Shown here piece after piece: positions 13,995 through 32,392 of a stretch of DNA of 64,000 nt; the stretch's first letter is position 1; every line of letters starts with the position of its first letter. The position numbers and the translations under genes were made by a program. Below the pieces are notes generated by a model. The model saw nothing but the letters and a program-made list of their open reading frames with translations, ran no database searches and was not told the DNA's origin. Location of the stretch: NCBI GenBank assembly GCA_012838795.1, contig DUOO01000003.1, positions 69,663-133,662 on the forward strand, written 5' to 3'. The stretch comes from Clostridiaceae bacterium (GTDB lineage Bacteria; Bacillota; Clostridia; Saccharofermentanales; DTU023).

Positions 13995-16097
13995 TTGTCT
14001 GTTATCAGTATCAGGCTTCCGGGCTATTTCAAAGACAATATGGTTTTGCAGCAGGGGATAACAAATCGCATCTTTGGGCAAACAAAATCTAATGCGAAAA
14101 TTCGAATTTTGTTGGAGAGATATCCGGGAATAGATTCTGCGAAAAATAAAGAATACGGTATTGTATTTCAGAATACGGATGAATCCGATGCACGTGGTTT
14201 GTTCGGCTTCAGATTACCTGTATTGGAAGCTTCATCTGATTTTTATCGTTTGTCATTAACTGTAGAAAACACACGTTGTGTTATAGAAAATATTTATTTC
14301 GGTGAAGTCTGGTTAGCTTTAGGTGAATCTAATATGTCGATGCCGGTTCGTTATACCGATGTTAAAGCTTTGCTTCCGCAAATTTCCAAACAACGAAAAC
14401 TTCGGATTTTCACAATGGCTGAAGACGGTTTGGCCGATGATGAAGAGATGTTTTTATATAAACCGACTGCTCGTATCGTAAAAGGACAATGGTTGACTCC
14501 GAATATGGAAAATTTCTTGGATGTGTCTGCCACAGCCTTGGTTTTTGCTGCCAGATTGCAGGAAAGTTTAAATATACCGGTTGCAATCTACAATTTGGCA
14601 GCAGCGGATACGATGATCCATAGTTGGTTGCCGAGAGAAATTATTGAGACCAAACCTCATTTGAAACAACATGTGCTGGATTCGGGACATTATCGCGATA
14701 AATCAAATTGGAACGATTTATCTTCTGAATCGAAATCTTTCAGTCGAAAAAATCAACCGACAGTAATGTATAATCACAAACTTGCTCCGTTTACCGGATT
14801 ATCGATTCGTGGTATTATATTTTCACACGGTGAATCGGATGTTCATTTTCCCGAATATTATCTGGAAGCATTTAAGGAGTTTTCGACAGTATTATGTCGC
14901 AATTTTCATAGCTTCAAACGTGGTCCGTGTATGATTTACAGCCAATTGGCACCTTATTATTACAGTTCAAGTGACGATAAAGTATTAGCCTGTTTTAATG
15001 AGGCGTTAACAATAGCCAGACGCCAGCTGAAAACTCCTGCCGGTATGATTACTCTATATGATTTACCTTTAGATTATAATACCGAGGGCGACCATATTTA
15101 TGCCAGACCGTTAAATCCGAAAGCTAAAGCTCAAATCGGTGAGCGCATGTGTGATGTTGCAAAAGGTTTAGTTTATCATGCCGATATGCCGATTTCGGCT
15201 CCGGAAGTAAAATATGCAGAATGGATTTCAGATAAGTTAATTCTGAGTTTTGCCAATGTCGGAGAAGGATTAAAGTTACCGGAAGGTGATTTAACATTAA
15301 AAGGATTTAACATTTGCGGTGACACTTCAAATTATTTGCCGGCTCAAGCAAAAAAATTGTTCGGTATCAGAACTTTGGTTTGGCATCCTGAAATTAAAAA
15401 ACCACAGTCCTGTTCTTACGCTTTTTCCGGTTTTAATCAAGCTGCCAATTTGTTGGGCGGCAACGGTATGCCGATCGTGCCTTTTCGTCTGGAAAGAGAT
15501 TATCCGGAAAACTCTTTAAGTCAAATTTGGATGTATTGTGATCAACTCACAGGTTGGATTGTTCCGAAAAAATCAACTGATTATTCAAAAATGCCAAAAC
15601 AGGATCAACCGGGTTATTTTCCTTTATGGCAAATTTCTTCGGGGAAAGGCAAATTAAGTTTGGAAAAAAATAATAAACGCAGTAGTTCCGCTGCATTATA
15701 TTTAGAATATACCAAAGCTGATCAAATACCGATTATGTTTGAGCCTATTTTGCATTATGCTTCACTCTATCCGCCATTAAATTTAAGTTTTTGGCGAAGA
15801 TTAACGATTGAACTTTTTAATTCAGATCATCATGTAAAAAAAATCTTTTTGTTACTGGAAGATGAAGATGGAAATTCGGCCAGATCGATTCCTCATCAAA
15901 TAAAAGATATCTTGGCGTGGCAAAAAATTAGTTTTATAATTGACGAAATGCATGTTGATTTAAGCAGAATTAAGCGTTTGCAATTTATTGTACAATCAAA
16001 TTATTCAGATGGTAATTTAACTATAGATTCAGTGTTCGGTGAAGGCAGGAAAATTATCGTAAAGGAAGTTGAGGAAATTAATGAAGAGAATAGATAG
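13995..16097 (+). CDS. Cytoplasmic SASA/DUF303-type carbohydrate esterase (sialate O-acetylesterase-like) with a C-terminal region I could not assign
   Basis: 700-aa ORF with a TTG start after GGAGG. The N-terminus (LPGYFKDNMVLQQG...) and nucleophile block (VWLALGESNMSMP, 14322-14336) resemble the GQSNM esterase family. No signal peptide. Confidence 0.6.
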   Translation: MSVISIRLPGYFKDNMVLQQGITNRIFGQTKSNAKIRILLERYPGIDSAKNKEYGIVFQNTDESDARGLFGFRLPVLEASSDFYRLSLTVENTRCVIENIYFGEVWLALGESNMSMPVRYTDVKALLPQISKQRKLRIFTMAEDGLADDEEMFLYKPTARIVKGQWLTPNMENFLDVSATALVFAARLQESLNIPVAIYNLAAADTMIHSWLPREIIETKPHLKQHVLDSGHYRDKSNWNDLSSESKSFSRKNQPTVMYNHKLAPFTGLSIRGIIFSHGESDVHFPEYYLEAFKEFSTVLCRNFHSFKRGPCMIYSQLAPYYYSSSDDKVLACFNEALTIARRQLKTPAGMITLYDLPLDYNTEGDHIYARPLNPKAKAQIGERMCDVAKGLVYHADMPISAPEVKYAEWISDKLILSFANVGEGLKLPEGDLTLKGFNICGDTSNYLPAQAKKLFGIRTLVWHPEIKKPQSCSYAFSGFNQAANLLGGNGMPIVPFRLERDYPENSLSQIWMYCDQLTGWIVPKKSTDYSKMPKQDQPGYFPLWQISSGKGKLSLEKNNKRSSSAALYLEYTKADQIPIMFEPILHYASLYPPLNLSFWRRLTIELFNSDHHVKKIFLLLEDEDGNSARSIPHQIKDILAWQKISFIIDEMHVDLSRIKRLQFIVQSNYSDGNLTIDSVFGEGRKIIVKEVEEINEENR

Positions 16098-18882: not shown

Positions 18883-19818
18883 ATGGCATTAGTAACAACA
18901 GAAAAAATGTTTAAGGAAGCATATGATGGTGGCTATGCAATAGGTGCTTTCAATGTAAATAACATGGAAATTGTCCAAGGTATCACAGAAGCGGCAAATG
19001 AATTAAATTCACCTTTGATTTTGCAAGTTTCTTCCGGTGCCAGAAAATATGCAAAACATACGTATTTGATGAAATTAGTCGAAGCCGCAGTTCAGGAAAC
19101 CGATATTCCGATTGCTTTACATTTGGATCACGGAGATACTTTTGAATTATGTAAAAGTTGTATTGACGGTGGTTTTACCTCGGTAATGATTGACGGTTCA
19201 CACTTAGACTATGAAGATAATGTTGCTTTAACCAAACGGGTTGTTGAATATGCCCATGCACACGGTGTTGTTGTTGAAGCAGAATTAGGACGTTTAGCCG
19301 GTATTGAAGATGATATTAATGTATCGGCTGAAGATTCAAGCTACACAGATCCGGCACAAGTTGAAGACTTTGTAACACGTACCGGTTGTGACTCATTGGC
19401 AATTGCGATCGGAACCAGCCACGGAGCTTATAAATTCAAACCAGGTAAAGAGATCAAATTAAGATTTGACATTTTAGATGAAGTGGCAAGAAGATTACCC
19501 GGTTTTCCAATTGTTTTACATGGCGCCAGCTCGGTAATTCCTGAATTCGTTGAAATGATCAACGCCAACGGCGGTGCATTAGAAGATGCGTTAGGCTGTC
19601 CGGAACCGATGCTCAGAGAAGCAGCTCGTGGAGCAGTTTGCAAAATCAATATTGACTCGGATTTACGTTTGGCCATGACAGCTTCAATCAGACGTGTCTT
19701 TAATGAATCTCCGTCAGAGTTTGATCCTCGTAAGTATTTAGGACCAGGCCGGGATGCCATTCGTGATCTGGTCAGACATAAGATTACCGCTGTTTTAGGC
19801 TCAGACGGCAAAGCATAA
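18883..19818 (+). CDS. fba: Class II fructose-1,6-bisphosphate aldolase
   Basis: 311-aa ORF with class II aldolase motifs (ALHLDHGDTFE, AIAIGTSHGAYKF, LVLHGASS-like VLHGASSV). Confidence 0.95.
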   Translation: MALVTTEKMFKEAYDGGYAIGAFNVNNMEIVQGITEAANELNSPLILQVSSGARKYAKHTYLMKLVEAAVQETDIPIALHLDHGDTFELCKSCIDGGFTSVMIDGSHLDYEDNVALTKRVVEYAHAHGVVVEAELGRLAGIEDDINVSAEDSSYTDPAQVEDFVTRTGCDSLAIAIGTSHGAYKFKPGKEIKLRFDILDEVARRLPGFPIVLHGASSVIPEFVEMINANGGALEDALGCPEPMLREAARGAVCKINIDSDLRLAMTASIRRVFNESPSEFDPRKYLGPGRDAIRDLVRHKITAVLGSDGKA

Positions 19819-20081: not shown

Positions 20082-20789
20082 ATGGTTAATATGGAATATA
20101 ATACAATAATCGATAAGAAGAGTGTCAGTCAACAGATAATAGATCTTATTTTACAAGAAATAATAGAGGGTAGATTAAAGCTGGGGGACAGAATCTTAAA
20201 TGAAAGAGAATTTGCCGCAGAACTGGGTGTATCCCGTGTACCTTTACGCGAAGCGATTTCGGCTTTATCACTATTAGGAATTCTTACACCGAAACAAGGA
20301 GAAGGTACTTTTGTAACAAATTTCAATTCAGAAAGATTCAGTAAAATAATTTTCGCAAACGTCAAACTTCAAAATATATCGCAACAGGATATATTCGATG
20401 TAAGAAAAGATTTTGAATGCAGTGCAGCAAAATATGCTGCTAAAAGAGCAACTAAAGAAGATATTAAAAAAATAAAGCACTATTATGATTTACATAAAAA
20501 AACAATAGATCAGTATCTTTCAGGAGAAGGAAATTTATTATCAGTAACAAAAGCAGATATGCAATTCCATGATGCAATTGCATCAGCAGCAAACAATGAA
20601 TTTTTTAAGCAGTTTGTGGATGCCCTGCACTATTCAATAAAGTATATGCATTCAATATATAAAAATAAAAAAGATGAATTGAATATATTTTCAACTCATC
20701 ATAAGAAAATCTTGGATGCAATAGAAGAAGGAAATCCTGATTTAGCTCATAAGAACATGTCGGAACATCTCAATACAATTGTTTTCTGA
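20082..20789 (+). CDS. GntR-family transcriptional regulator, FadR/FCD subfamily
   Basis: 235-aa ORF with an N-terminal wHTH (ERELAAELGVSRVPLREAISAL-like: EREFAAELGVSRVPLREAISAL) and an all-helical C-terminal FCD-like domain. An alternative ATG lies at 20091. Confidence 0.88.
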   Translation: MVNMEYNTIIDKKSVSQQIIDLILQEIIEGRLKLGDRILNEREFAAELGVSRVPLREAISALSLLGILTPKQGEGTFVTNFNSERFSKIIFANVKLQNISQQDIFDVRKDFECSAAKYAAKRATKEDIKKIKHYYDLHKKTIDQYLSGEGNLLSVTKADMQFHDAIASAANNEFFKQFVDALHYSIKYMHSIYKNKKDELNIFSTHHKKILDAIEEGNPDLAHKNMSEHLNTIVF

Positions 20790-20850
20790 TTAACAAATGA
20801 ATAATTAATTTTGATTGAATGAGAAATAAAGGTAAATATTTTTTCGACAA

Positions 20851-20871
20851 ATGGTAATACCACATTACCAC
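20851..20871. promoter_or_regulatory. Candidate GntR operator, copy 2
   Basis: ATGGTAATACCACATTACCAC. TGGTAATACCA is a perfect palindrome. A TATAAT lies at 20886-20891, just downstream. Confidence 0.55.
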
Positions 20872-20912
20872 TAAGAAAAGCAATATATAATCAAGAAAAG
20901 GGTTTAATATTT

Positions 20913-20945
20913 CTATTAATGGTAACACCATATTACCATTAATAG
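20913..20945. promoter_or_regulatory. Candidate GntR operator, copy 3, embedded in a 13-bp perfect inverted repeat
   Basis: CTATTAATGGTAA (20913-20925) and TTACCATTAATAG (20933-20945) are exact reverse complements. The core ATGGTAACACCATATTACCAT (20919-20939) matches copy 2 at 18 of 21 positions. Confidence 0.55.
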
Positions 20946-21098
20946 AATGTGACATTGCTGCTTTAATAATAAAAAAAGAAATGGAGGGAGAAGTAAAAAA
21001 CTGAATAATTGTAGGCAGGTAATTTTTTAACAAATTTTAGTTTGTTAAGCGGATGGATGAAACAAATTAAGTATTAAAGATTAGGAGTTTGAATTGTT

Positions 21099-22175
21099 AT
21101 GAAAAAAAGTATTTTTAAAAAAGTATTGAGCTTATTGTTAGTCAGCATTTTGATATTTGCTATGGCTGCATGCAGTAAAAAAGAAACTAAAGAAGACGAG
21201 AAAAAAGAGGACGTCAAAGAAGAATCAAAAGAAGAATTAAAGGAAGAGGAAAAAGAAGAAGAAAAGGAAGAGGAAGAGGCTTCAGATTCAAAAGAAAAAT
21301 ATCGAATAGTCTATGCTATTTGTGATAAAGAAACCACAACAGCGGTTGCTTCTGAAGAGCGCATGAAAGAACTTGAAAAAGAACACGATAATATCGAGTT
21401 TACTTATATGGCTAACAGTAATGCAGATACGAATGTAGCTATCGAAAATGCGCGTAATGTTATTACATTGAAACCGGATTTGTATATTAATTACCTGGTC
21501 AGCGCGGCAAGTGAGCGAGTCGGAGAAATGATGGCCGAAGCCGGTCAACCAATGCTTTCTGTACAATCACGTTGTGGCGATACCCCGCTCTGTGCTATTG
21601 ACAATGTCCAAATCGGTCATGATATGGCAGTGGCTCTTACCGATTATTATAAAGAAAACTGGGCAGATGAAGAAGATGTTCAAATCCTTTTTGCCAATAT
21701 GCCTGACTCAGGTCAAATGTTTGTAGACAGACAAACCGGATCTGAAGAATATTTTGCTCAGGAAATTCCGGATCTTCCACAGTCATTGATTAACGGACAC
21801 GGCAACATGGAAACAAACAGACAGATGTTCGCTGATTTCTTAACCGCTCATCCTGATTCAAAGGTTTTAGTTTGGGCTCATATTGATGAACCGGCATTCG
21901 GTATATTAGCCGCAGCTGAAGCAGCTCACAGAACAGACGATATTGTAATTGTAAGTACCGGCGGTATAGCAGATTTTTATGCGGAAATGCAAGAAGAAGG
22001 CAGCCCGTTATTAGGAACAGTGGATTATTTCCCCGATAAATGGTCTGACACAATTTTGGAAGTAGCATTGGATATGCTTGAGGGCAAAGAAGTTCCGGAT
22101 ACAACTGTACTTTATACAGAATTGGTTACATTAGAGAATCTGGCGGAATTGCGTCCTGAATATGTAATCGATTAA
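21099..22175 (+). CDS. Sugar ABC transporter substrate-binding lipoprotein (PBP type I, ribose-binding-like)
   Basis: 358-aa ORF with a signal peptide and lipobox (IFAMAAC), a Glu/Lys-rich tether, then a periplasmic-binding-protein fold. Confidence 0.8.
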   Translation: MKKSIFKKVLSLLLVSILIFAMAACSKKETKEDEKKEDVKEESKEELKEEEKEEEKEEEEASDSKEKYRIVYAICDKETTTAVASEERMKELEKEHDNIEFTYMANSNADTNVAIENARNVITLKPDLYINYLVSAASERVGEMMAEAGQPMLSVQSRCGDTPLCAIDNVQIGHDMAVALTDYYKENWADEEDVQILFANMPDSGQMFVDRQTGSEEYFAQEIPDLPQSLINGHGNMETNRQMFADFLTAHPDSKVLVWAHIDEPAFGILAAAEAAHRTDDIVIVSTGGIADFYAEMQEEGSPLLGTVDYFPDKWSDTILEVALDMLEGKEVPDTTVLYTELVTLENLAELRPEYVID

Positions 22176-22206
22176 CAGTTTCTGCCTGTGAGGAGAGGAA
22201 AACGCC

Positions 22207-23712
22207 ATGAACATAATTGAAGCGAGGAAAATTTGTAAATCATTCGGCGGTATAAGCGCAGTAAGTGACGTTGATTTTGAATTACGAAAAGGCGAGATAC
22301 ATTCAATCATCGGTGAAAACGGTGCAGGGAAATCAACTTTTATCAAAATGATTTCCGGTGATTACATTGCGGATTCCGGGACAATAACATTCGAAGGGCG
22401 GGAAGTAAAATTAACCCGCCCTGAAGATGCAACATCACTGGGGATCAGAACGATTTATCAGGAATTCAATTTGATTCCAACCATGAGTGTTGCAGAGAAT
22501 ATATTTTTGGGCGATTTACCGCTCAAAAATAAAGTTGTTTCTTGGCCGGAAATGTATCAAAAAGCTCATGACTTATTAGCCAGACTGGGTGTAAATATCG
22601 ATTCACGAAAAAATGTCAGTGAACTCACGGTTGCAGAACAACAGATGGTAGAGATATGTAAAGCACTTTCGAAAGACATGAAGGTATTGATACTTGATGA
22701 ACCGACAGCTGCACTTAACGAAAATGAAAGCCAGAAATTATTTACATTAATCAGAACATTATCATCCCAAGGGGTGAGTATTGTATATATCTCTCATTAC
22801 TTGAATGAAATAATGGATATTTCTGAAAGAATATCCGTCTTCCGTGATGGCAAAAAAGTTACCACTGTAAACAAAGAAGACACAAAAGTATCAGATTTGG
22901 TTACATATATTGTCGGTCATGAAATGGGCCATCAATATAAGGAACGACAGGTCGAGTTCGGAGCAACAATATTAGAAGTAAATTCAATTTCAAATAATTA
23001 CTTAACAGATATTACTTTTCAAGTAAAGAGTAAAGAAATAGTCGGCCTATATGGTTTGTTAGGAGCAGGTCAACTAGAGATCTGCCGCACCCTATTTGGT
23101 GATTTACCGATAAATAGTGGTGAAGTGAAAATCAACAATAAATCTGTTGCTATTTCAAGCCCGATTGAAGCAATGAAAAACGGCATCGGTCTTGTTCCTT
23201 CAGACAGAAAAAACGAAGGTTTAATGATGAATATGTCTGTAGGAGTGAATTCTACATTCAGTGGTACATATTTGCGTTCGAAACATGGAGTTATAGATTT
23301 TGCGAAAGAGAGAGAAGTTTTTGAAAAGTTAAAGCAAGATGTGCAAATTAAAACCACAGGGTACAACCAAAACATTACAGATCTTTCCGGCGGCAATCAA
23401 CAAAAAACATTGATATCGCGCTGGATGGATTATGATTCCAGTGTATTGATACTGGCAGATCCCACCCGTGGAGTAGACATAGGTGCGAAATCCGAAATAT
23501 ATGATCTTTTATATGATTTTTGTAATTTAGGTAAAGCTGTTCTGTTTATGTCATCTGATTTACCTGAAGTTTTAGGTGTTGCTGACAGACTGATTTTGTT
23601 TAGTGACGGTCGGATTCTGACTGAATGTAATTGTAATGAAGTCAGTCAGGCGGATGTGTTGAATTTATTAAATGCCAGCGAAGAACAGAGTGAAGAAACT
23701 GTTGCTTCTTAA
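22207..23712 (+). CDS. Sugar ABC transporter ATP-binding protein (tandem ABC domains, RbsA/MglA-like)
   Basis: 501-aa ORF with Walker A GENGAGKST, a degenerate second P-loop, signature LSGGNQQK and Walker B ILDEPT/ILADPT. Confidence 0.9.
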   Translation: MNIIEARKICKSFGGISAVSDVDFELRKGEIHSIIGENGAGKSTFIKMISGDYIADSGTITFEGREVKLTRPEDATSLGIRTIYQEFNLIPTMSVAENIFLGDLPLKNKVVSWPEMYQKAHDLLARLGVNIDSRKNVSELTVAEQQMVEICKALSKDMKVLILDEPTAALNENESQKLFTLIRTLSSQGVSIVYISHYLNEIMDISERISVFRDGKKVTTVNKEDTKVSDLVTYIVGHEMGHQYKERQVEFGATILEVNSISNNYLTDITFQVKSKEIVGLYGLLGAGQLEICRTLFGDLPINSGEVKINNKSVAISSPIEAMKNGIGLVPSDRKNEGLMMNMSVGVNSTFSGTYLRSKHGVIDFAKEREVFEKLKQDVQIKTTGYNQNITDLSGGNQQKTLISRWMDYDSSVLILADPTRGVDIGAKSEIYDLLYDFCNLGKAVLFMSSDLPEVLGVADRLILFSDGRILTECNCNEVSQADVLNLLNASEEQSEETVAS

Positions 23713-23729
23713 ACAGAACGGAGGACAAA

Positions 23730-24701
23730 ATGTCGAAAAAATTAGGAAATATTAAAGCAAGACTATCATCATCAGGTTCAGTGTTTGGTCTGTTTTTGGT
23801 TTATATTTTATTAGTTATTTTACTTTCATTTTTATCAAAATATTTTTTTCAATTAAGTAATTTTGCCAATATCGGAATTTCGATAAGTGTGTATGGTATT
23901 GCAGCCCTTGGTGTTACGATGATTATTTTATCCGGTGGCCTTGATATGTCAGTAGCAGGCAATATGGCATTATCGAATGTAATTTCCGTGCTGCTTTTAA
24001 CGAAAACCGATCTCAGTCCATATCTGATAATGATAGTTTGTGTCTTAGTAGGATTAATTGTAGGAATAATAAACGGTTTTTTAGTTACCGCGTTTGATCT
24101 GCATCCGACGATCGTAACGCTGGGAACTGCAGGAATAACCAGAGGTACGGCATTTGTAATATGTGGCGGCATGTCAATGATGCACGATTCAAAAGAGATT
24201 AAATTTTTAGGCTCAGGAAAAATTCTGGGTATACCGGTAAGTCTGCTGTTTTTCGTAGTACTTTTGATAATTATGTTTTTAGTGCTGAAATACACTACTT
24301 TCGGTCGTTCCGTCTATGCGATTGGCGGAAATAGAAGAGCCAGTCGTTTAGCAGGAATTTCAGTGAAGAAAACACAAATGTTAATTTTTTCTATATCAGG
24401 GATGTTAGCGGGAATTGCAGCTCTGATCCTAACCGGTACTACCGGCGGCGGAGGAGGCAATGCAGCAACCGGATGGGAGAGTGATATCATCAGTGCCGTT
24501 CTTTTGGGAGGAACCAGTATTGCAGGAGGAAAAGGTACAGTATTTGGTACCGCGCTGGGTATCTTATTTATCGGTACGTTAAATAACGGCATGTCATTAT
24601 TAGGTACAAATTCATATGTACAAATGATCTTGAGGGGCCTGGTATTAATAATTGCGGTTGTTATAGATAGTGTCAGAAACAGAAAAGCTATAGCTAAGTA
24701 A
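23730..24701 (+). CDS. Sugar ABC transporter permease (RbsC-like)
   Basis: 323-aa polytopic ORF with a Gly-rich C-terminal segment (TGTTGGGGGNAATG), as in branched-chain/monosaccharide (BPD_transp_2) permeases. Confidence 0.88.
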   Translation: MSKKLGNIKARLSSSGSVFGLFLVYILLVILLSFLSKYFFQLSNFANIGISISVYGIAALGVTMIILSGGLDMSVAGNMALSNVISVLLLTKTDLSPYLIMIVCVLVGLIVGIINGFLVTAFDLHPTIVTLGTAGITRGTAFVICGGMSMMHDSKEIKFLGSGKILGIPVSLLFFVVLLIIMFLVLKYTTFGRSVYAIGGNRRASRLAGISVKKTQMLIFSISGMLAGIAALILTGTTGGGGGNAATGWESDIISAVLLGGTSIAGGKGTVFGTALGILFIGTLNNGMSLLGTNSYVQMILRGLVLIIAVVIDSVRNRKAIAK

Positions 24702-24748
24702 ATCGATAAGTATTGAGAAACATTAATTGAAAACAAAGGAGAGTAAAA

Positions 24749-25789
24749 ATGACAAAAGACTATTTTAAAAGAGTAAGTGCCAAAACCCCGACCCGTTTTT
24801 GGATAAACAATGTAACTGAAGAGCAAGCTCGATTGGCAATAGAAGCCGGAGCAATTAATTGCACACAAAATCCGACATATCCGTCAAAAATATTAGGTAA
24901 CCCTGTGTTAGGAGAGGGACCGGATAATTTGCTTAAGAAATTGATGGAAGAAGATGCGGACAACGAATCTGTATTAACAAAATTTCAGCTTCATAGTGTA
25001 AAGAAAATTTGTGATATTTTCTTACCGGTTTTTGAAAAATCAAAAGGTAAAGAAGGGTATGTAACTATTCAATCAAGTCCGCTTGATGAATCCTTCGAAA
25101 ATATCGTAACCTGTGCTGAAATGTACAAAGATGTTGCACCGAATATTATGATAAAAATTCCTGCAACGGAATCAGGTCTGGAAGCGATACGTTATCTTTG
25201 TGAACAAGGGTATGCGGTATTAGCTACTGAAGTTATGAGTGTAGCACAAGCAATTGATGTATGTGAAATTTATGAAGAATGTTTAAAGAAAAACTCTGAC
25301 GTAAAGACTTTTGCGTTTGCGCATATTGCAGGGATATTCGATGAGGAATTGTCTGCTCAGGTAGAAGCGCAAAACATCGATGTAGACAGAGATGCTTTGT
25401 GGCAAGCAGGCATAATTGTTGCAAAAAAGATCAGACGTATGATGGATGATCGCGGATATAAAGCAGAAATGCTTTCAGGCGGTGCGAGGGGATTGCATCA
25501 CTTTACCGAGATGGTAGGTGCCCGTTCAGGCATTACCATTAATTGGCAGGGAACCGCTGACAAATTATTAGAAGCAAATGGTGTCGTGATTGATCGTTTC
25601 TCTTGTGCGCCTGCTCCGGATGTTATTGATGAATTATTAGAAAAAATCCCCGATTTTAAACGAGCATATTTACGTGACGGATTAAAAGCAGAAGAATATG
25701 AAGATTTTGCTCCGGTGCGCAGATTTAGAAATCAGTTTGAAAATGGATGGAATAAAGCATTAGATTATATTGCTGATCGAAGAAAATAA
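24749..25789 (+). CDS. Transaldolase-family (class I aldolase fold) protein
   Basis: 346-aa ORF with N-terminal TRFWINNVTEEQ...NCTQNP and the Schiff-base lysine context IMIKIPAT. Confidence 0.75.
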   Translation: MTKDYFKRVSAKTPTRFWINNVTEEQARLAIEAGAINCTQNPTYPSKILGNPVLGEGPDNLLKKLMEEDADNESVLTKFQLHSVKKICDIFLPVFEKSKGKEGYVTIQSSPLDESFENIVTCAEMYKDVAPNIMIKIPATESGLEAIRYLCEQGYAVLATEVMSVAQAIDVCEIYEECLKKNSDVKTFAFAHIAGIFDEELSAQVEAQNIDVDRDALWQAGIIVAKKIRRMMDDRGYKAEMLSGGARGLHHFTEMVGARSGITINWQGTADKLLEANGVVIDRFSCAPAPDVIDELLEKIPDFKRAYLRDGLKAEEYEDFAPVRRFRNQFENGWNKALDYIADRRK

Positions 25790-25835
25790 TAAATATTTTT
25801 TTATTAAATATCAAATATATAACAGAAAGGAATAG

Positions 25836-26954
25836 GTGAATGTTATGTCAGATAATAATGTAGTAAAAGATGACGGTAGAGGAATATTGTCCGGTACATG
25901 GGTATCAAGAGATCAGGATATTGATCGGGATCAGTGGTTAAGAGATTGTTTTCCTGAATGGGGTACATTCTTAAATCAAGAAATAGAAAACTTTGAAGTT
26001 CCGGTAGGCCAAGTAGCCTTATGGTGGTGCGGCGGTACATCATGGATTTTAAAAACTGATGCCGGCGGGATTTTCTGGATAGATCAATATTGCGGCCCGT
26101 CAATATACACAGAGCGAGTAGGAAATTGCGGTGTTTGCAGACAAGGCGGTGCTGTGAGTATCAATTGGCTGCGATTAAATGTACAAGTTATTGATCCTTG
26201 GAAATTCAACAGAGTAGACGGTGTTTTCTGTACACATATGCATCAAGATCATACGGATCTTTATGCTGTTAAAGCTGCTTTGAAAACAACAGATGCTCCA
26301 TTTTATGCGGCACCGAAAGCTGCTGAAAAATTGAGAGTGTTTAAGGTTCCGGAAGAACGTATCCATGTTGCGAGGGTGGGAGAATCCGTGCGAGTCCCGG
26401 GAGCGGAGGTAGATTTCTTAGTTTGTTATGACGACACGGCGATCAGAACTACAGCCGGTGATGAACTGTTACCATATGAAGAAGCAGCTGTATCATTGTT
26501 GTTTAAGACTTCCGGAGGAAACATTTTATTTTTAGCCGATACTTGGTATAACGACGGTTATGTAGAAGTTGCAGCTAAATATGATATAGATGTAGCTCTG
26601 TTTAATATGGGATTTAATCCTCCGGGAGCTACTGATAAAATGACACCGTATGATGCTGCCAGATTAGGTCAAACTCTCAAAGCAAAACTATTGATTCCGT
26701 ATCACTATGATAATTGGGCTAATTGTACAGGAGATCCTGCAATGCTTACTCGTCAGTTGGAGTATATCGTTTCCGATTTAACACCTGAAACAAAAACGGT
26801 GATTATGGCATGTGGCGGACGTTTCCTTTATCCCCAGGATCAAGATATTAAACGTTATAGATATCCTGATGGTAGTGAAGATTTCAAATATGAGCGTTCA
26901 GAACATTATAAACGTAGAAAAAAATATGAAGATTCTCTGAAACAGGAGAAATAA
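25836..26954 (+). CDS. UlaG-like metallo-beta-lactamase-fold hydrolase (putative phospho-sugar lactonase)
   Basis: 372-aa ORF with the HxHxDH motif (HMHQDHTD). The N-terminus (FPEWGTFLNQEIE...VALWWCGGTSWILKT) parallels E. coli UlaG. The start could be GTG 25836 or ATG 25845. Confidence 0.75.
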   Translation: MNVMSDNNVVKDDGRGILSGTWVSRDQDIDRDQWLRDCFPEWGTFLNQEIENFEVPVGQVALWWCGGTSWILKTDAGGIFWIDQYCGPSIYTERVGNCGVCRQGGAVSINWLRLNVQVIDPWKFNRVDGVFCTHMHQDHTDLYAVKAALKTTDAPFYAAPKAAEKLRVFKVPEERIHVARVGESVRVPGAEVDFLVCYDDTAIRTTAGDELLPYEEAAVSLLFKTSGGNILFLADTWYNDGYVEVAAKYDIDVALFNMGFNPPGATDKMTPYDAARLGQTLKAKLLIPYHYDNWANCTGDPAMLTRQLEYIVSDLTPETKTVIMACGGRFLYPQDQDIKRYRYPDGSEDFKYERSEHYKRRKKYEDSLKQEK

Positions 26955-26976
26955 AGGGAATATAAACCCTTTCCGG

Positions 26977-27109
26977 ACAAGTACAATGAAGCACTCACAA
27001 AACGATTATGATTTCAATTGCTGATGAAGCACCAGCATGCACGTATATGATTTTAATTGCTGATGATATTCCTCGCTAAAAGACCTACATGTGCTTCATT
27101 GTACTTTGT
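26977..27109. repeat. Inverted-repeat-bounded structured element (candidate leader RNA or MITE-like element)
   Basis: The 18-nt arm ACAAGTACAATGAAGCAC (26977-26994) pairs with GTGCTTCATTGTACTTTGT (27091-27109), with one extra T. Inside are two 21-nt direct repeats, TATGATTT[C/T]AATTGCTGATGA (27007-27027 and 27046-27066). A hairpin, TGCTG-ATGAAGCAC-CAGCA (27019-27037), carries in its loop a copy of part of the left arm. Confidence 0.6.
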
Positions 27110-27156
27110 CGTAAAAAGGATGTTGTTTTTGTTAACAACACAAGGAGTGTGAATTT

Positions 27157-28098
27157 ATGAGTAAAAAAAGAAGAGAAAAAACAATTATAACCGCTTCAAT
27201 TACAGGAGCAATTCATACGCCAAGTATGTCGCCGTATCTTCCTAAAGGGAAAGACGAGATTATTCAAAACGCTGTTGACGCGTGGAAAGCGGGAGCTGCA
27301 ATTGTACATATTCATGCGAGAAAACCTGTAACGGGGGAGCCGACTTCTGACTTGGATTACTTCAGAGAAATATTAAACGGTATTAAAGAACAGTGTAATG
27401 TAGTTATCGGGATTACTACCGGTGGCGCATTAGGAATGACCGTCGAAGAACGTTTTGCTGTTTTATCCGAATTTCAACCTGAAATGGCAACTTGTAATGC
27501 AGGGACATCCAATTTTGTTTTGTCCGAATTGACAAAAACATTCGATAAACCGCAGTTTGATTGGGAAGAGCCGTTTTTATTAAGAACATATGACAGCTTT
27601 TTCAAAAACACATTCGCTGATATAGAACATGCATTAACTTTGATGAATGAACACCGGATCAGACCGGAATTCGAGGTTTTTGATCTTGGACAAATTAATA
27701 CTGTTGCTTATTTCAGGCGTAAAGGACTTGTTAAAGATCCGATATATATTCAGTTTGTACCCGGAACATTGGGTGGAATACCGTTAAGTAACGATAATAT
27801 TACATTTATGATTAAAACGGCTCAACAGTTATTGGGTTCAGATATAAGGTACTCATTAGTAGGATCAGGACGCAGAATGTTCCGTGCAGAAACTTTCCAT
27901 GTTTTACAAGGCGGCAATGTAAGGGTCGGGATGGAAGACTCTTTATATATCAATATTCAAGGTGAACTTGCTCGCAATAATGCTGAACAAGTAACAAAAA
28001 TTAAAAGTATTTTAGAATTACTGGATTATGAAATAGCCAGTTCAGATGAAGCCAGAGAAATGTTACAGCTTAAAGGTGTGGATAAAGTCAATTTCTAG
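27157..28098 (+). CDS. Beta-keto acid cleavage enzyme family protein (BKACE, DUF849)
   Basis: 313-aa ORF. The N-terminus (IITASITGAIHTPSMSPYLPKGKDEII...AGAAIVHIHAR) is typical of 3-keto-5-aminohexanoate cleavage enzyme homologues. RBS AAGGAG lies at 27142-27147. Confidence 0.8.
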   Translation: MSKKRREKTIITASITGAIHTPSMSPYLPKGKDEIIQNAVDAWKAGAAIVHIHARKPVTGEPTSDLDYFREILNGIKEQCNVVIGITTGGALGMTVEERFAVLSEFQPEMATCNAGTSNFVLSELTKTFDKPQFDWEEPFLLRTYDSFFKNTFADIEHALTLMNEHRIRPEFEVFDLGQINTVAYFRRKGLVKDPIYIQFVPGTLGGIPLSNDNITFMIKTAQQLLGSDIRYSLVGSGRRMFRAETFHVLQGGNVRVGMEDSLYINIQGELARNNAEQVTKIKSILELLDYEIASSDEAREMLQLKGVDKVNF

Positions 28099-28126
28099 AG
28101 GGTAAGTTTATAATATAAATATAGTC

Positions 28127-28152
28127 AGCCAGTGATAAAGTTATCACTGGCT
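28127..28152. promoter_or_regulatory. Perfect 12-bp inverted repeat (hairpin or protein-binding palindrome)
   Basis: AGCCAGTGATAA (28127-28138) and TTATCACTGGCT (28141-28152) are exact reverse complements. No T-run follows, so it is not a canonical terminator. Confidence 0.5.
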
Positions 28153-28297
28153 AAATGAAGCATCAGACAGCGGTTTGTTCTATGTGAATATGAAATTTTT
28201 TTCATGGAATCCCAATAAGACGGGGATAATTTGTTCTGGAGAACAATCTCAGGTTTTATTTTTTGTGGATGTAAGCGGACAATTTAGTGAGGTTAAT

Positions 28298-28708
28298 ATG
28301 AGTTTCGTCTATTCAGAATTAAAAGTGGGTGATTCGAATAATTTTCAAAAAACAATTACAGTTGCCGATATAACATTATTTGCAGCGATATCAGGTGATT
28401 TTAATCCTATGCACGTCAGCGCACAATTTGCGAAAAAAACTCAATACAAACAAAGAATTGCACATGGAGCACTAACTTCCGGATTAATTTCCGCTGTGAT
28501 AGCAAATACTTTTCCTGCTTCTATATACATATCGCAATATGTTGAATATTTAGCACCTGTGTTTATAGATGATACCATTACAGCAATTATTGTTTGTAAA
28601 GAAAAATTAGGGAAAGGCAGAGTGAGATTACAAACAAAATGTATTAATCAAAATGATGTATTAGTTGTTGATGGCGAAGCTATTGTTAGATTAGCCAGAG
28701 ATAGATAA
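28298..28708 (+). CDS. MaoC-like (R)-specific enoyl-CoA hydratase / hot-dog fold dehydratase
   Basis: Motif FAAISGDFNPMHV...RIAHG. The ORF track starts at 28175, but ATG 28298 follows GTGAGG with good spacing and gives the usual ~136-aa size. Confidence 0.8.
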   Translation: MSFVYSELKVGDSNNFQKTITVADITLFAAISGDFNPMHVSAQFAKKTQYKQRIAHGALTSGLISAVIANTFPASIYISQYVEYLAPVFIDDTITAIIVCKEKLGKGRVRLQTKCINQNDVLVVDGEAIVRLARDR

Positions 28709-28775
28709 TTGAACAACCGGCAAAAATTTAAATTTAACTCGTGGATAATTGGTTTATTTTTTTTGAATGATAGTA

Positions 28776-28784
28776 TGGTATAAT
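28776..28784 (+). promoter_or_regulatory. Extended -10 promoter element upstream of the kinase gene
   Basis: TGGTATAAT (TGnTATAAT) about 40 nt upstream of ATG 28825. No good -35 at proper spacing. Confidence 0.35.
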
Positions 28785-28824
28785 ATATCAAAATGCAAAT
28801 AAACAATAGAAATGAGGTTTAAGC

Positions 28825-29898
28825 ATGAAATTAAAAGAAAATTGCAAGTATAATTTAGTTATCCCGACAAGTATGGGACTCAGACTAACACCTGTGGATC
28901 GGATGCCGGTACATATGAGTAATCAATATCTTATGACTTCGACCAGTGCGGAATCAAATGTAGGACAAATATCTGCTTCTTTGGGTAAAAAAGTTAAATT
29001 ACTAACTGCCTTTGTGGAAGACAATGCAATTTCTGATTTTATCAAGGGCGAATTGCGTAAACGCAATATTGACTTTGAAGGTCCTGATGTTCCAACAGGC
29101 GGACCATGGGGTTATCGCCATCACATCAATATTGCTGATAGTGGTTATGGTATGCGCGGACCTCATGTTCTCAATGACAGAGCCGGTGAAGTAGGTCGTT
29201 CTTTGAACGCGAAATATTTTGATCTCGACAGGATTTTCAAAGAAGAAGGAGCACAAATCATTCATATCTCAGGTTTGATTGCAGCTTTATCCGCAGATAC
29301 GAGTGAATTCTGTTTGGAAGTTGCAAGAGCAGCTAAAGCCAACGGTACCAAGATAGCCTTTGATTTAAATCACAGAGCATCTTTCTGGGTAGGTCGTGAG
29401 GAAGAATTACGTGCAGCTTTTGATGAAATTGCCGGCTATGCAGATATCTTGATCGGCAATGAGGAAGATTATCAATTAGCTCTGGGAATCAAAGGACCTG
29501 AAGCAGGTGGTGTCGATATTGCTGATAAGATTGACGGTTTCAAAGAAATGGTCAAACGTGTTCATGAGGCATATCCTAACTGTCAAGTATTTGCAAATAC
29601 CTTACGTGATGTAAAAAGTGCAAATGAACATGAATGGGGTGCAATCCTCTACGTCAATGATAATTTTTATGTTGTTGAGCCACGCCCGATTCCGGTACTT
29701 GACCGCATTGGTGGCGGAGACGGATTTGTTGGTGGTTTGCTTTACTCAATTCTCAGCGGTTGGGATGAAGACAAATGGGTAAAATTTGCTTGGGCAACCG
29801 GTGCTTTGGCTTCAACCTTACTCACAGACTATGCTTGTCCTGCAAATGAAGAACAAGTTTGGGCAATTTACGAAGGTAATGCTCGAGTAAAACGATGA
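28825..29898 (+). CDS. PfkB-family sugar-acid kinase, 2-dehydro-3-deoxygluconokinase (KdgK)-like
   Basis: 357-aa ORF with N-terminal SMGLRLTP...SAESNVGQISASLG, ATP/anion-hole motif GGGDGFVGGLLY and NEEDY. Confidence 0.8.
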   Translation: MKLKENCKYNLVIPTSMGLRLTPVDRMPVHMSNQYLMTSTSAESNVGQISASLGKKVKLLTAFVEDNAISDFIKGELRKRNIDFEGPDVPTGGPWGYRHHINIADSGYGMRGPHVLNDRAGEVGRSLNAKYFDLDRIFKEEGAQIIHISGLIAALSADTSEFCLEVARAAKANGTKIAFDLNHRASFWVGREEELRAAFDEIAGYADILIGNEEDYQLALGIKGPEAGGVDIADKIDGFKEMVKRVHEAYPNCQVFANTLRDVKSANEHEWGAILYVNDNFYVVEPRPIPVLDRIGGGDGFVGGLLYSILSGWDEDKWVKFAWATGALASTLLTDYACPANEEQVWAIYEGNARVKR

Positions 29899-29953
29899 CA
29901 AATTTCGATAGCACTGTTTGTCGGAGGATGACTCTGTATGAAAGAGGTGAAGA

Positions 29954-31399
29954 ATGTCTGATATTGGCTTAATCGGTTTAGCTGTTATGGGCGAAAACTT
30001 AGTGATGAACATGGAAAGCAACGGCTTTTCTGTTTCGGTATATAATCGCACAACTTCTAAGGTAGATGATTTTATTAATGGCAGGGCAAAGGGAAAAAAT
30101 ATTCAAGGTGCTTATTCTTTGGAAGAATTAGTTGAACAAGTCGACAGACCGAGAAAAATTATGATAATGGTTAAAGCCGGTAAACCTGTTGACAATATAA
30201 TTGAACAATTAATTCCTTTACTGGATGAAGGTGATATTTTGATTGATGGAGGAAATTCACATTTCCCGGATACCGAAAGACGCACTAAATATATTGAGAG
30301 TAAAGGCTTGCTGTATATCGGCAGCGGTGTTTCCGGTGGTGAAGAGGGTGCTTTAAAAGGACCATCTCTAATGCCGGGTGGTTCGCCGGATGCATGGCCG
30401 CTCATAAAACCAATATTCCAATCAATAAGTGCTAAAGTTGATGAAGGTGCCGCTTGTTGTGAATGGGTAGGCAGTGGTGGTGCCGGTCATTTTGTCAAAA
30501 TGGTTCACAATGGAATTGAATATGGCGATATGCAGCTTATTTGTGAAGTTTATCAGATAATGAGAGATTATCTGGGCATGACAAATGAAGAAATGCAAGC
30601 TGCATTTGCCAAGTGGAACGAAGGTAAGCTTGACAGTTACTTGATTGAAATTACTGCAGATATCTTGGGCTACAAAGATGAGAATGGCGAAGCTGTCGTA
30701 GATTATGTTTTAGATGCTGCCGGTCAAAAAGGCACCGGTAAATGGACCGGCATTAGTGCTTTAGAAGAAGGAGTACCGCTGACATTAATAGTGGAAGCAG
30801 TTTTTTCGCGTTGCCTCAGTTCACTTAAAGATGAAAGAATAGAAGCAGCTAAAATATTAAAAGGGCCTGAAGTTAAATTTGAAGGGGATAAAGAGCCTAT
30901 ACTCAAGGCTTTACATGATGCTTTATATGCTTCAAAGATTGTTTCTTATGCTCAGGGATATGCTCTGATGAGAACAGCCTCTGAAACATATGATTGGGAT
31001 CTCCAATATGGTGATATCGCTTTGATGTGGCGTGGTGGTTGTATTATCCGCAGTGCCTTTTTAGGTAAGATTAAAGAAGCCTTTGATAAACAACCCGGTT
31101 TGAAAAATTTACTCTTAGATGACTATTTCCGCAAGGAAATTGATGCTGCTCAAGCAGGTTGGCGTGAAGTTGTAGCTGAAGCGGTTAAAGCTGGTATTCC
31201 GGTACCCGCTATTTCATCTGCTCTTGCCTATTATGACGGTTATCGAACAGAAAATCTTCCTGCCAACTTATTACAAGCGCAAAGAGACTATTTTGGAGCT
31301 CATACTTATGAAAGAACAGATCGTCCTCGCGGTCAATTTTTCCATACCAATTGGACCGGCGAGGGTGGTGACACTGCAGCTTCAAACTACGATGTATAA
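29954..31399 (+). CDS. gnd: 6-phosphogluconate dehydrogenase, decarboxylating
   Basis: 481-aa ORF with NADP fold [12 protein letters not shown] plus [21 protein letters not shown] and [10 protein letters not shown]. Confidence 0.95.
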
Positions 31400-31438
31400 T
31401 TATCATTATCAGCTATTTTATTATTATATATGTTTAGT

Positions 31439-31480
31439 AAAGATCAGACGAGAATATTAATTCTCGTCTGATCTTTAATT
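31439..31480 (+). terminator. Terminator hairpin after gnd
   Basis: Perfect 17-bp stem AAAGATCAGACGAGAAT (31439-31455) / ATTCTCGTCTGATCTTT (31460-31476). The trailing T-tract is short (TTTAATTT). Confidence 0.7.
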
Positions 31481-31541
31481 TGGTTGAAAATTATTTAGAT
31501 ATTAATTCTATAATTGAAACAATATTTAAAAGTCAATAAAT

Positions 31542-31580
31542 AGAAAATCGCTTTCAACATAATATTGAAAGCGGTTTTCT
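31542..31580. terminator. Second hairpin; possible bidirectional or backup terminator
   Basis: AGAAAATCGCTTTCAA (31542-31557) pairs with TTGAAAGCGGTTTTCT (31565-31580), with one G-U pair. No clean T-run on either strand. Confidence 0.4.
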
Positions 31581-32065
31581 ATAGAGGTAAGTATTTTAAG
31601 GATTGTAGTGTGTAAGTTTTCTTTAATACAATCAATTCTATCATATAATTATTTATTTTTTCAATTTATTTACATTGTTATTATATAATATGCCATAAAA
31701 AAACCATAAAAATTAATAATTTATACAATGTTTGAATATTATATCAGTTTTCAGCAATGAATTTAAATATTATTGAATATTTATATAATTGTAACATAAT
31801 AACTAAAAATTATCCTTATTATCTTAAAACTCTAAAATCTTATTTGTATGATTTTTTCAATCTATTAAACATCAAAATTTTAAAATTTATGAAATTGCTG
31901 TATCAATCAGGACCTTTCAGAGTATTAATTTGTTAATTCGTATAAAAATAACAATCGAATCTTTACATAATCATATTAAACAAGTAGATTTAAGCTTAAT
32001 TATCATATTGAATGACGATTTAATTTTAATAATTAAATGATAAATTTCAGAAATGATTTGCAACT

Positions 32066-32392
32066 AGATTTTTCAGAGGAAACGCGTGATTTGTTGAAAC
32101 CGATAGAGAGGCAAGACAGGTGGAAATTGCCGGCAGAGACTTATTGCTACTCAGTTCCTCGCATCATATGTGATTGCAGTTTGAGATTTAAGCTTAGAAT
32201 TTCAAATGACTAATCCAAGTAGTTTCTTTTATACCCGGTCGAGAAATCAAAAGATCAGGATCATATTAAAAGTAAATTATTGAATGATAGAAAAATACCA
32301 GTTTAATAGATGCAGAGTGAATGAAAATTAATTTTCATTAATTTGGGTGGTACCGCGATAATTCGTCCCAGAGAGTAATCTCTGGGTTTTTT
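32066..32392 (+). promoter_or_regulatory. T-box leader riboswitch (Leu-type, candidate CUC specifier) with intrinsic terminator
   Basis: Stem I elements are the AG bulge GATAGAGAG (32102-32110) and the distal-loop GGTGGAA (32119-32125). CTC occurs at 32150-32152 and 32158-32160 on the 3' side. The T-box sequence is AATTTGGGTGGTACCGCG (32340-32357). The terminator stem is CCCAGAGA (32367-32374) / TCTCTGGG (32379-32386) plus T6. It lies directly upstream of leuA. Confidence 0.85.

Follow-up and report, generated by a model that had tools for sequence, protein, structure and literature searches.

We analysed a 64,000-nt stretch of DNA from a Clostridiaceae bacterium (contig DUOO01000003.1; hereafter the window, within which all positions are numbered), with a focus on a BKACE (DUF849) gene and on the MaoC hydratase gene that follows it. 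The conserved module at this locus consists of genes for a GntR/FCD-family regulator, a ribose-type (CUT2) sugar ATP-binding cassette (ABC) transporter, a protein resembling the transaldolase/fructose-6-phosphate-aldolase (TAL/FSA) family, an UlaG-like hydrolase and BKACE, and it ends at BKACE. MaoC opens a 3.4-kb strain-specific segment that abuts this module and is not a conserved partner of BKACE, because related BKACE loci, the loci of MaoC homologues and a sibling genome all show no such pairing. The adjacency of BKACE and MaoC is a strain-level accident of gene order, and the informative partner, the UlaG-like hydrolase, stands on the other side of BKACE.

The end of the module and the MaoC gene

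The window proteins were scanned against Pfam, NCBIfam (with its curated cut-offs) and PDB, and the DNA was scanned with Rfam and for terminators; L-numbers denote the genomic and metagenomic loci used for comparison. All genes from 20082 to 31399 lie on the + strand, with BKACE (27157-28098, 313 aa) as the last gene of the module and MaoC (28298-28708) as the first of the insert. On comparison with the sibling locus L096, which lies on a 1.52-Mb contig, 91% nucleotide identity was observed over 21028-28105, and the encoded proteins were 98-99% (UlaG-like hydrolase), 97% (BKACE), 93-94% (TAL-like protein) and 96% (binding protein) identical. This homology stops 7 bp past the BKACE stop codon (28105) and resumes at 31539, and the window-specific segment in between (28106-31538) holds MaoC, a PfkB-family kinase gene and gnd. 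The GC content of the insert (0.37-0.40) is like that of its flanks, so that base composition is not distinctive. Where the window has MaoC, PfkB and gnd, L096 carries ilvD, adhE and an APH-family (PF01636) kinase gene. We had considered this ilvD as a dedicated sugar-acid dehydratase and have withdrawn the suggestion, since the gene has an orthologue in the window, the ilvD at 41146-42810, with which it shares 93% identity, and is therefore probably housekeeping. The two loci also differ just 5' of the GntR gene, where the class II fructose-bisphosphate aldolase gene, a single copy in the window (18883-19818), is tandemly duplicated in L096 (2774-5119) with copies 94% identical.

Both edges of the window-specific segment are marked by hairpins, which were found by the terminator scan and by sequence inspection. 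The left one, between BKACE and MaoC (28125-28154, 13-bp stem, no strand assigned), lies just past the synteny breakpoint; its stem is not followed by a T-run on the + strand, and hence it is not a clear intrinsic terminator. The right one (31438-31477, + strand, 18-bp stem) lies 3' of gnd and likely marks the end of a MaoC-PfkB-gnd transcription unit. The MaoC protein was found on 12 contigs, including a short contig from a biogas fermenter, and the two with enough flanking sequence, L178 (ENA) and L179 (Logan), keep the order BKACE-MaoC-PfkB. As the same junction was recovered from two sources, it is real, and an assembly chimera at this point was ruled out.

The open reading frame 28175-28708 (+) carries PF01575 (MaoC_dehydratas; 86 bits, E 1.6e-24), and translation likely starts at the ATG at 28298, which gives 136 aa and has a GTGAGG ribosome-binding site six bases before it. 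The top PDB matches are the PhaJ hydratases 5CPG (105 bits) and 1IQ6. The hydratase-2 motif FAAISGDFNPMH is present with its catalytic Asp and His, and the gene is predicted to encode an intact PhaJ-type (R)-specific enoyl-CoA hydratase. Among its companions in the insert, the PfkB-family protein (28825-29898; Pfam PfkB) resembles 2-keto-3-deoxygluconate (KDG) kinases: its nearest solved structure is the KDG kinase of Thermotoga maritima (2AFB, 113 bits), and in NCBIfam it comes closest to a KHG/KDPG aldolase-kinase fusion, of which it matches the kinase domain (181 bits). The last gene, gnd (29954-31399), encodes a decarboxylating 6-phosphogluconate dehydrogenase (TIGR00873, 780 bits against a cut-off of 427).

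The original prediction held that BKACE and MaoC form a pair, whose adjacency might recur next to sugar transporters in other genomes. We looked for such recurrence from both sides and did not find it. On the BKACE side, 80 genomic loci around BKACE relatives and about 20 more obtained by exact-protein look-up were searched with the window proteins. In these roughly 100 loci no MaoC gene was detected within 10 kb of BKACE, save an unrelated match of 27% identity 7 kb off in L055, and no PfkB or gnd homologue adjoined BKACE. On the MaoC side, none of the four homologue contexts examined contained BKACE. The nearest MaoC homologues, 60-66% identical, reside in a different and very consistent cluster (L087-L094) in which MaoC always occurs with a crotonase, and which variably includes a family III CoA-transferase, an SDR, an acyl-CoA ligase, a family I CoA-transferase, a 3-hydroxyacyl-CoA dehydrogenase (3HCDH) and a thiolase. 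Further members are glycerate kinase in L089/L090, a GntP permease in L093/L094 and LacI regulators in L087/L088 and L093/L094. These clusters are similar to the CoA-dependent deoxyribonate cluster of Klebsiella michiganensis in their CoA ligase, CoA-transferase, thiolase, glycerate kinase and 3-hydroxyacyl-CoA dehydrogenase, and they add a pair of an R- and an S-hydratase that could epimerise the 3-hydroxyl. On account of this resemblance, the MaoC clade plausibly handles hydroxyacyl-CoAs derived from sugar acids.

That BKACE and MaoC nevertheless work as a pair, with BKACE cleaving a 3-keto-aldonate and MaoC dehydrating or hydrating the resulting hydroxyacyl-CoA or enoyl-CoA, we regard as somewhat unlikely. 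The two genes do lie side by side on one strand, 200 bp apart, in an arrangement stable over 12 contigs; the catalytic Asp/His motif of MaoC is intact, and its nearest homologues keep the company just described. Against these points stand the lack of pairing in the loci searched from either side, the presence of the whole module without MaoC in L096 with the break in homology directly after BKACE, the hairpin and the 200-bp gap between the genes, and the absence from the window locus of the crotonase that accompanies all MaoC homologues. In the strains that have both genes, MaoC may dehydrate an (R)-3-hydroxyacyl-CoA made by BKACE.

BKACE, the UlaG-like hydrolase and the rest of the module

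BKACE matches PF05853 with 312.6 bits (E 2.9e-93, cut-off 24.8), its residues 8-305 covering profile positions 1-274 of 274, and is 100% identical to an NCBI entry from a metagenome-assembled genome named "Clostridiaceae bacterium". Residues H51, H53 and E260, which we take to be the zinc ligands, as in the Kce structure, are present and invariant in the alignment, while E173 aligns to the catalytic base E171 of BKACE15 and R256 to its R254. We read the protein as a catalytically competent member of the family; having the zinc-ligand, catalytic Glu and Arg residues, it would fall outside subgroups G6 and G7, which have been described as inactive and "not BKACE" (PMC4922564).

Its best curated model was NF053538 (3,5-dioxohexanoate:acetyl-CoA transferase, an equivalog model), with 404 bits against a cut-off of 430; the Kce model gave 237 bits (cut-off 382) and the Kal-Kce fusion model NF052389 137 bits (cut-off 725), and the protein did not reach the cut-off of any of the four curated NCBIfam models for the BKACE family. 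The nine other BKACEs of the Firmicutes clade that were tested likewise remained below 430 with NF053538 (269-395 bits), whereas proteobacterial and actinobacterial homologues passed at 514-555 bits. As far as sequence comparison goes, the window BKACE belongs to a distinct Firmicutes clade without an assigned function. The original prediction had named assignment to a subgroup of known non-sugar substrate as the result that would speak against a sugar acid, and with scores below every curated cut-off no such assignment was obtained. The top solved structures were 3LOT, 3E02 and 3E49, all uncharacterised, and BKACE15 of Paracoccus denitrificans, the nearest characterised homologue, which takes uncharged polar beta-keto acids (PMC11961710). 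The substrates of the nearest characterised relatives, uncharged polar or hydrophobic, match the profile described for subgroup G1, a likeness by homology and not a placement.

The gene preceding BKACE (25836-26954) encodes an UlaG-like hydrolase of the metallo-beta-lactamase fold and putative lactonase. It matches the E. coli UlaG structure (PDB 2WYL) with 200 bits, and its HxHxDH metal motif (H134, H136, D138, H139) is invariant in the alignment. With the L-ascorbate-6-phosphate lactonase equivalog model NF008688 it reached 229 bits against a cut-off of 306, and because of this shortfall it is placed in the UlaG fold family but not as an UlaG equivalog, its substrate probably differing from that of UlaG. 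Orthologues of 58-99% identity adjoin a BKACE of the same clade in about 12 Firmicutes lineages (loci L015, L016, L020/L107, L095, L096/L097, L100/L102, L101/L103/L104, L105, L131, L147, L165, L183 and L185). The gap between the two genes is 202 bp in the window (26955-27156), where no RNA family was matched, and ranges from a 4-bp overlap to 50 bp in L015, L016, L095, L183 and L185.

The companions of this gene pair vary among lineages. A thiolase, a DUF1537 kinase, an SDR and an aldolase resembling class II fructose-bisphosphate aldolase (FBA-II) were found in L015, L016, L147 and L185. L020/L107 encode a three-subunit molybdenum-dependent dehydrogenase, a 3HCDH-type dehydrogenase and an IlvD-type dehydratase, and L095 a TAL-like protein, a CUT2 ABC transporter, a 3HCDH, a true deoC (203 bits, cut-off 117) and a GarR-like reductase. 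IlvD occurs in L100-L105, with a major facilitator superfamily (MFS) transporter in L100 and a 3HCDH or GarR-like gene in some, and a TAL-like protein with a thiolase in L165 and L183. Across these loci, 3HCDH-type dehydrogenases were present in the BKACE-bearing relatives L020, L095 and L105, TAL/FSA-like genes in L095, L096, L165 and L183, and GntR/FCD genes in L015, L016, L020, L095, L096, L183 and L185.

In a neighbour-joining tree computed without bootstrap, the UlaG-associated BKACEs occupy deep branches of the Firmicutes clade, a position which suggests that the UlaG association is ancestral. Nested among them is the other common BKACE context (Type A), consisting of a PCC domain, AP_endonuc_2, BKACE, thiolase, DUF1537 kinase, SDR and RraA-like proteins, as in Hungatella hathewayi and Massiliimalia timonensis. 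A strongly conserved and apparently uncharacterised cluster of this composition was observed in about a dozen Firmicutes genomes (L001-L012, L017-L019), where RraA-like, CUT1 ABC transporter, PCC/DUF296, AP_endonuc_2, BKACE, thiolase, DUF1537 acid-sugar kinase and SDR genes stand together; its BKACEs are 55-64% identical to that of the window, and two of its carriers are cultured, namely H. hathewayi DSM 13479 (L009) and M. timonensis (L007).

A metagenome scan with the UlaG-like alignment yielded 80 loci in 30 clusters at 90% identity, 18 of which had at least 6 kb of context. Within 10 kb of the UlaG-like gene, GntR was found in ten of these 18 clusters, a CUT2 ABC transporter in nine, a molybdenum-dependent dehydrogenase and a 3HCDH-type dehydrogenase in six each, an IlvD-type dehydratase in five and BKACE in three (plus two short contigs). 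MaoC, PfkB and gnd were found in none. The clusters also carry sugar or acid transporters. The IlvD-type genes of the distant loci all pass the ilvD equivalog cut-off and, judging from their context, would be catabolic. The commonest form in the human gut (the L108-L128 type, e.g. L122:8836-20756; 31/80 loci) is an UlaG-like cluster without BKACE, and from this we conclude that the UlaG-like hydrolase serves the catabolism of sugar acids or lactones in these bacteria generally, BKACE being one of several downstream options. This gut form includes GntR, the UlaG-like gene, a TRAP transporter (DctPQM), glyoxalase-family and 3HCDH-type genes, a Dak1/Dak2 kinase, an RpiB-type isomerase and an IlvD-type gene, a set which suggests an acid-sugar route through a tetrulose-type intermediate; it also holds a 376-aa protein without a family match. 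In another form (L020:463-10912, L107, L127 and L148) the UlaG-like gene is accompanied by a three-subunit molybdenum enzyme of the xanthine dehydrogenase family, 3HCDH-type and IlvD-type genes and a methyltransferase gene, with BKACE in L020/L107.

The remaining genes of the module lie upstream. It begins with the regulator (20082-20789; Pfam GntR and FCD domains), followed by the transporter genes for a substrate-binding lipoprotein (21099-22175; Peripla_BP_4), an ATPase with two ABC domains (22207-23712; ABC_tran twice) and a permease (23730-24701; BPD_transp_2). The ATPase has its top NCBIfam matches among the AraG, XylG and RbsA types, each below its cut-off, and the permease is AraH/RbsC-like, again below the cut-offs. 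For the binding protein the sole PDB matches are weak, at most 37 bits, and point to ribose-binding proteins. The TAL/FSA-like protein (24749-25789) is divergent, with 51 bits to the best transaldolase in PDB and 87 bits to Pfam TAL_FSA, and belongs to a sizeable and divergent clade of about 1,900 database matches (alignment A3). In this family the Schiff-base Lys136 (MIKIPAT) is invariant, as are Asn20 and Asn21 and also Gln108, which aligns to the Glu of the V-S-I/L-E-V motif in two transaldolase sequences. This Glu is the catalytic one in transaldolases, and Gln in its place is a trait of FSA, the aldolase; canonical transaldolases have Asp where the Asn20/Asn21 pair lies. The protein is probably not a classical transaldolase.

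With the regulator and the CUT2 transporter upstream and gnd downstream, the carbohydrate setting proposed in the original prediction is borne out, and its four gene calls (BKACE, MaoC, a lactonase-like gene and a sugar-acid kinase) all agree with our family and structure matches. Beyond the module and the insert, the upstream flank carries valS and the class II fructose-bisphosphate aldolase gene and the downstream flank the leu/ilv biosynthetic genes. A 700-aa open reading frame with a TTG start (13995-16097), located between a DUF2344 gene and valS, had no Pfam match at E 1e-5. The Rfam scan of the locus gave no match at gathering scores. Just 5' of leuA, a T-box leader match (32197-32373; 52 bits, E 2.4e-10, below the Rfam gathering score of 93) is followed by a terminator-like hairpin with a T-run (32367-32386), and the two together are probably an attenuator of the leu operon. 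The spacer 31400-32200, roughly 1 kb, is AT-rich and otherwise without annotation.

Candidate routes through the module

E. coli UlaG, the only characterised member of the hydrolase family that we know of, makes a beta-keto acid, 3-keto-L-gulonate-6-P, and BKACE consumes beta-keto acids. We consider it an evenly balanced proposition that the module converts an imported sugar-derived lactone to a 3-oxo acid by the UlaG-like hydrolase, and that BKACE then splits this acid with acetyl-CoA. The CUT2 ABC transporter would import the lactone or its acid, and the UlaG-like metal hydrolase would open the lactone ring. A 3-oxo (beta-keto) acid would arise directly if the substrate were an enol-lactone or a beta-keto-lactone, as with UlaG and ascorbate-6-phosphate; in relatives having a 3HCDH-type dehydrogenase, it could form after oxidation at C3. 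The zinc-dependent BKACE would subsequently carry out a Claisen-type acyl transfer with acetyl-CoA. One product would be a shortened hydroxyacyl-CoA and the other acetoacetate, or the 2-hydroxy analogue of acetoacetate where C2 is hydroxylated, so that the product of C-C cleavage would be kept as a thioester instead of being subject to decarboxylative loss. The gene identities, the intact catalytic residues and the two adjacency results, recurrence for UlaG-like/BKACE and none for BKACE/MaoC, are observations; the substrate class, the order of these steps and any part for MaoC are what we infer.

The original prediction of a beta-keto sugar acid as the substrate of BKACE stays plausible in this scheme, and is better grounded than before by the adjacency of the UlaG-like gene in about 12 lineages and by the frequent 3HCDH-type companions; the role it gave to the MaoC pair is not supported. 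A more specific form of the proposal, which we put forward tentatively and think possible without being likely, is that the UlaG-like/BKACE pair together with the TAL/FSA-like protein constitutes an undescribed route in gut and digester Firmicutes. In it, a sugar-derived lactone of the enol or beta-keto kind, such as an unphosphorylated compound of ascorbate or deoxy-aldonolactone type, would be opened to a 3-oxo sugar acid and cleaved thioclastically by BKACE; acyl transfer would replace the decarboxylation of the ula pathway and keep the energy of the bond in a hydroxyacyl-CoA.

Several points weigh against this proposal. No dehydrogenase is encoded in the module of the window, nor in L100 or L183, and the 3-oxo group would consequently have to be present in the substrate already or be introduced by enzymes encoded elsewhere. 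A 3-keto-aldonate has a 2-hydroxyl, and we found no literature report of a BKACE using a 2-hydroxy-3-oxo acid. Neither a thiolase nor an acetoacetate CoA-transferase was found in the 64-kb window. BKACE occurs in only three of the 18 UlaG-like clusters with enough context, which implies that the hydrolase also serves BKACE-free routes. The scheme gives no role to the TAL/FSA-like protein, the weak similarity of the binding protein to ribose-binding proteins is uninformative on the ligand, and the neighbour-joining tree carries no bootstrap support values.

One alternative, unlikely in our judgement, is that the module represents the Firmicutes counterpart to the oxidative 2-deoxy-sugar pathway, acting on deoxyribose or deoxyribonolactone. 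The lactonase would yield a 2-deoxy-aldonate, a dehydrogenase encoded elsewhere would oxidise it to a 2-deoxy-3-keto acid, and BKACE would form glyceryl-CoA and acetoacetate. The gene sets of two relatives point in this direction: L020/L107 combine a molybdenum-dependent dehydrogenase, the UlaG-like hydrolase, a 3HCDH-type dehydrogenase and BKACE, mirroring the Pseudomonas simiae set, and in L095 there are in addition a true deoC, a 3HCDH and a GarR-like reductase of the glycerate-forming kind. A ribose-type transporter is in keeping with this, and a 2-deoxy substrate would suit the canonical chemistry of BKACE, for which C2 has to be a CH2. The module, however, lacks a 3-dehydrogenase in the window, L096, L100 and L183, the window as a whole encodes neither a glycerate kinase nor a 3-dehydrogenase, and here too the TAL/FSA-like protein is left without a role.

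That last protein is given a function if BKACE acts not on the sugar acid itself but on a small beta-oxo acid freed by an aldolase from a keto-sugar acid, an explanation which we hold to be improbable. As an example, the TAL/FSA-like protein would cleave a 5-keto-2-deoxy-hexonate to dihydroxyacetone and malonate semialdehyde, and BKACE would convert the latter to formyl-CoA and acetoacetate. The invariant Lys136 and Gln108 would fit an aldolase (Gln being an FSA trait), and the related clusters always join BKACE to a kinase and an aldolase-type protein, DUF1537/FBA-II in L015/L185 and DUF1537/RraA in Type A. More than 20 BKACE homologues turn malonate semialdehyde into formyl-CoA (PMC11961710), but this activity has been described as non-native. 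The explanation is entirely inferential, none of the loci contains inositol-pathway genes (iolG, iolE, iolD, iolB), and the UlaG-like protein is in turn deprived of a role.

It is highly improbable that BKACE is a triacetate acetoacetate-lyase of anaerobic phloroglucinol (polyphenol) degradation, as its best curated model, that for 3,5-dioxohexanoate (triacetate), might suggest, or a Kce of lysine fermentation with MaoC in place of Kal, a hot-dog-fold lyase to which Kce is fused in some lysine fermenters (model NF052389), since the scores with all the models fall below the cut-offs, the nine other clade members tested score with NF053538 far from the proteobacterial and actinobacterial homologues, and the setting is a sugar ABC operon. 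Both identities were accordingly rejected: no PGR (an SDR), cyclase-family DPGC or TfD was found in the locus, MaoC matches PhaJ and not Kal, and no lysine aminomutase (kamA, kamDE), kdd or kal was found in the window.

If the module does cleave a 3-oxo sugar acid with acetyl-CoA, as in the reading that we prefer, it would give fermenting bacteria an alternative to routes in which CO2 is lost, through UlaD or spontaneously, and the single known link between sugars and BKACE, that of deoxyribonate, would be extended to anaerobes living in the human gut and in biogas reactors. For most members of the large BKACE family no physiological substrate has been assigned; in the present case recurrent synteny connects an entire Firmicutes clade with an UlaG-type hydrolase and with transporters of sugar type. 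Together, the UlaG-like hydrolase and BKACE thus offer a concrete two-enzyme system that is open to assay and widespread in gut and digester Firmicutes. The locus also calls for caution in the use of adjacency, as the striking neighbourship of BKACE and MaoC was misleading and the UlaG-like side informative.

Comparison with known systems

The adjacency of BKACE and MaoC is formally analogous to Kce-Kal, in which BKACE adjoins a small hot-dog-fold enzyme for a 3-substituted acyl-CoA product. The window differs in that the Kce score is far below the cut-off, MaoC is of PhaJ type, aminomutase and kdd genes are absent and the adjacency is not conserved. The triacetate acetoacetate-lyase of Clostridium scatologenes (PMC10470551) is likewise a BKACE in an anaerobic Firmicute that gives acetoacetate and an acyl-CoA, and a thiolase is often near BKACE in loci related to the window (Types A and B, L183), a further likeness to the phloroglucinol system. 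Unlike that system, the window has no PGR, DPGC or TfD, and its locus is built on a sugar ABC transporter and an UlaG-like hydrolase.

With BKACE15 (PDB 8RIO, 8RIP, 9HNF) and the NF053538 family, whose substrates are uncharged polar or hydrophobic beta-keto acids, the window protein shares a length of about 310 aa, a near-full-length alignment at 256 bits and the catalytic Glu and Arg together with the putative zinc ligands. It differs from them in that it and the nine other tested members of its Firmicutes clade reach 269-404 bits against the cut-off of 430, form a separate clade and stand in a carbohydrate-type context, not one of aromatic degradation.

The hydrolase invites comparison with the UlaG/UlaD part of anaerobic L-ascorbate catabolism in E. 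coli, with which it shares the UlaG family and the metal-binding motif. The characterised UlaG opens an enediol lactone to 3-keto-L-gulonate-6-P, a beta-keto acid. The window departs from ula in that its protein scores below the UlaG cut-off (229 against 306), an ABC transporter takes the place of the phosphotransferase system (PTS), and no UlaD decarboxylase is present, the lactonase being followed by BKACE. Because uptake is by an ABC transporter instead of a PTS, the substrate in the window is probably not phosphorylated.

The searchable literature gave no description of an UlaG-type hydrolase coupled to BKACE, nor of the companion TAL/FSA-like family, and when BKACE was searched for together with ascorbate, inositol, DUF1537, lactonase or sugar acid, the only precedent found was that of deoxyribonate. 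The original prediction saw in the locus a new link between sugar-acid catabolism and CoA-thioester chemistry, which overstates the case, as the deoxyribose/deoxyribonate pathway already makes this link with BKACE (PMC6365646). In that pathway a lactonase, an SDR dehydrogenase and BKACE are encoded in one operon and lead to glyceryl-CoA and acetoacetate (Price et al. 2019, PMC6365646). Our locus differs in having a lactonase of UlaG (metallo-beta-lactamase) type, no SDR or other 3-dehydrogenase in the operon, a CUT2 ABC instead of an MFS transporter, an added TAL/FSA-like protein and anaerobic Firmicutes as hosts. It resembles the pathway of Pseudomonas simiae and Paraburkholderia in that lactonase and BKACE share an operon with transporters (PMC6365646), and L020/L107 repeat by gene content, with parts that are probably not orthologous, the P. 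simiae set of molybdenum dehydrogenase, lactonase, 3-hydroxyacid dehydrogenase and BKACE. The proposed module would share with the deoxyribonate pathway its underlying logic, by which a sugar-derived beta-keto acid and acetyl-CoA yield a hydroxyacyl-CoA and acetoacetate.

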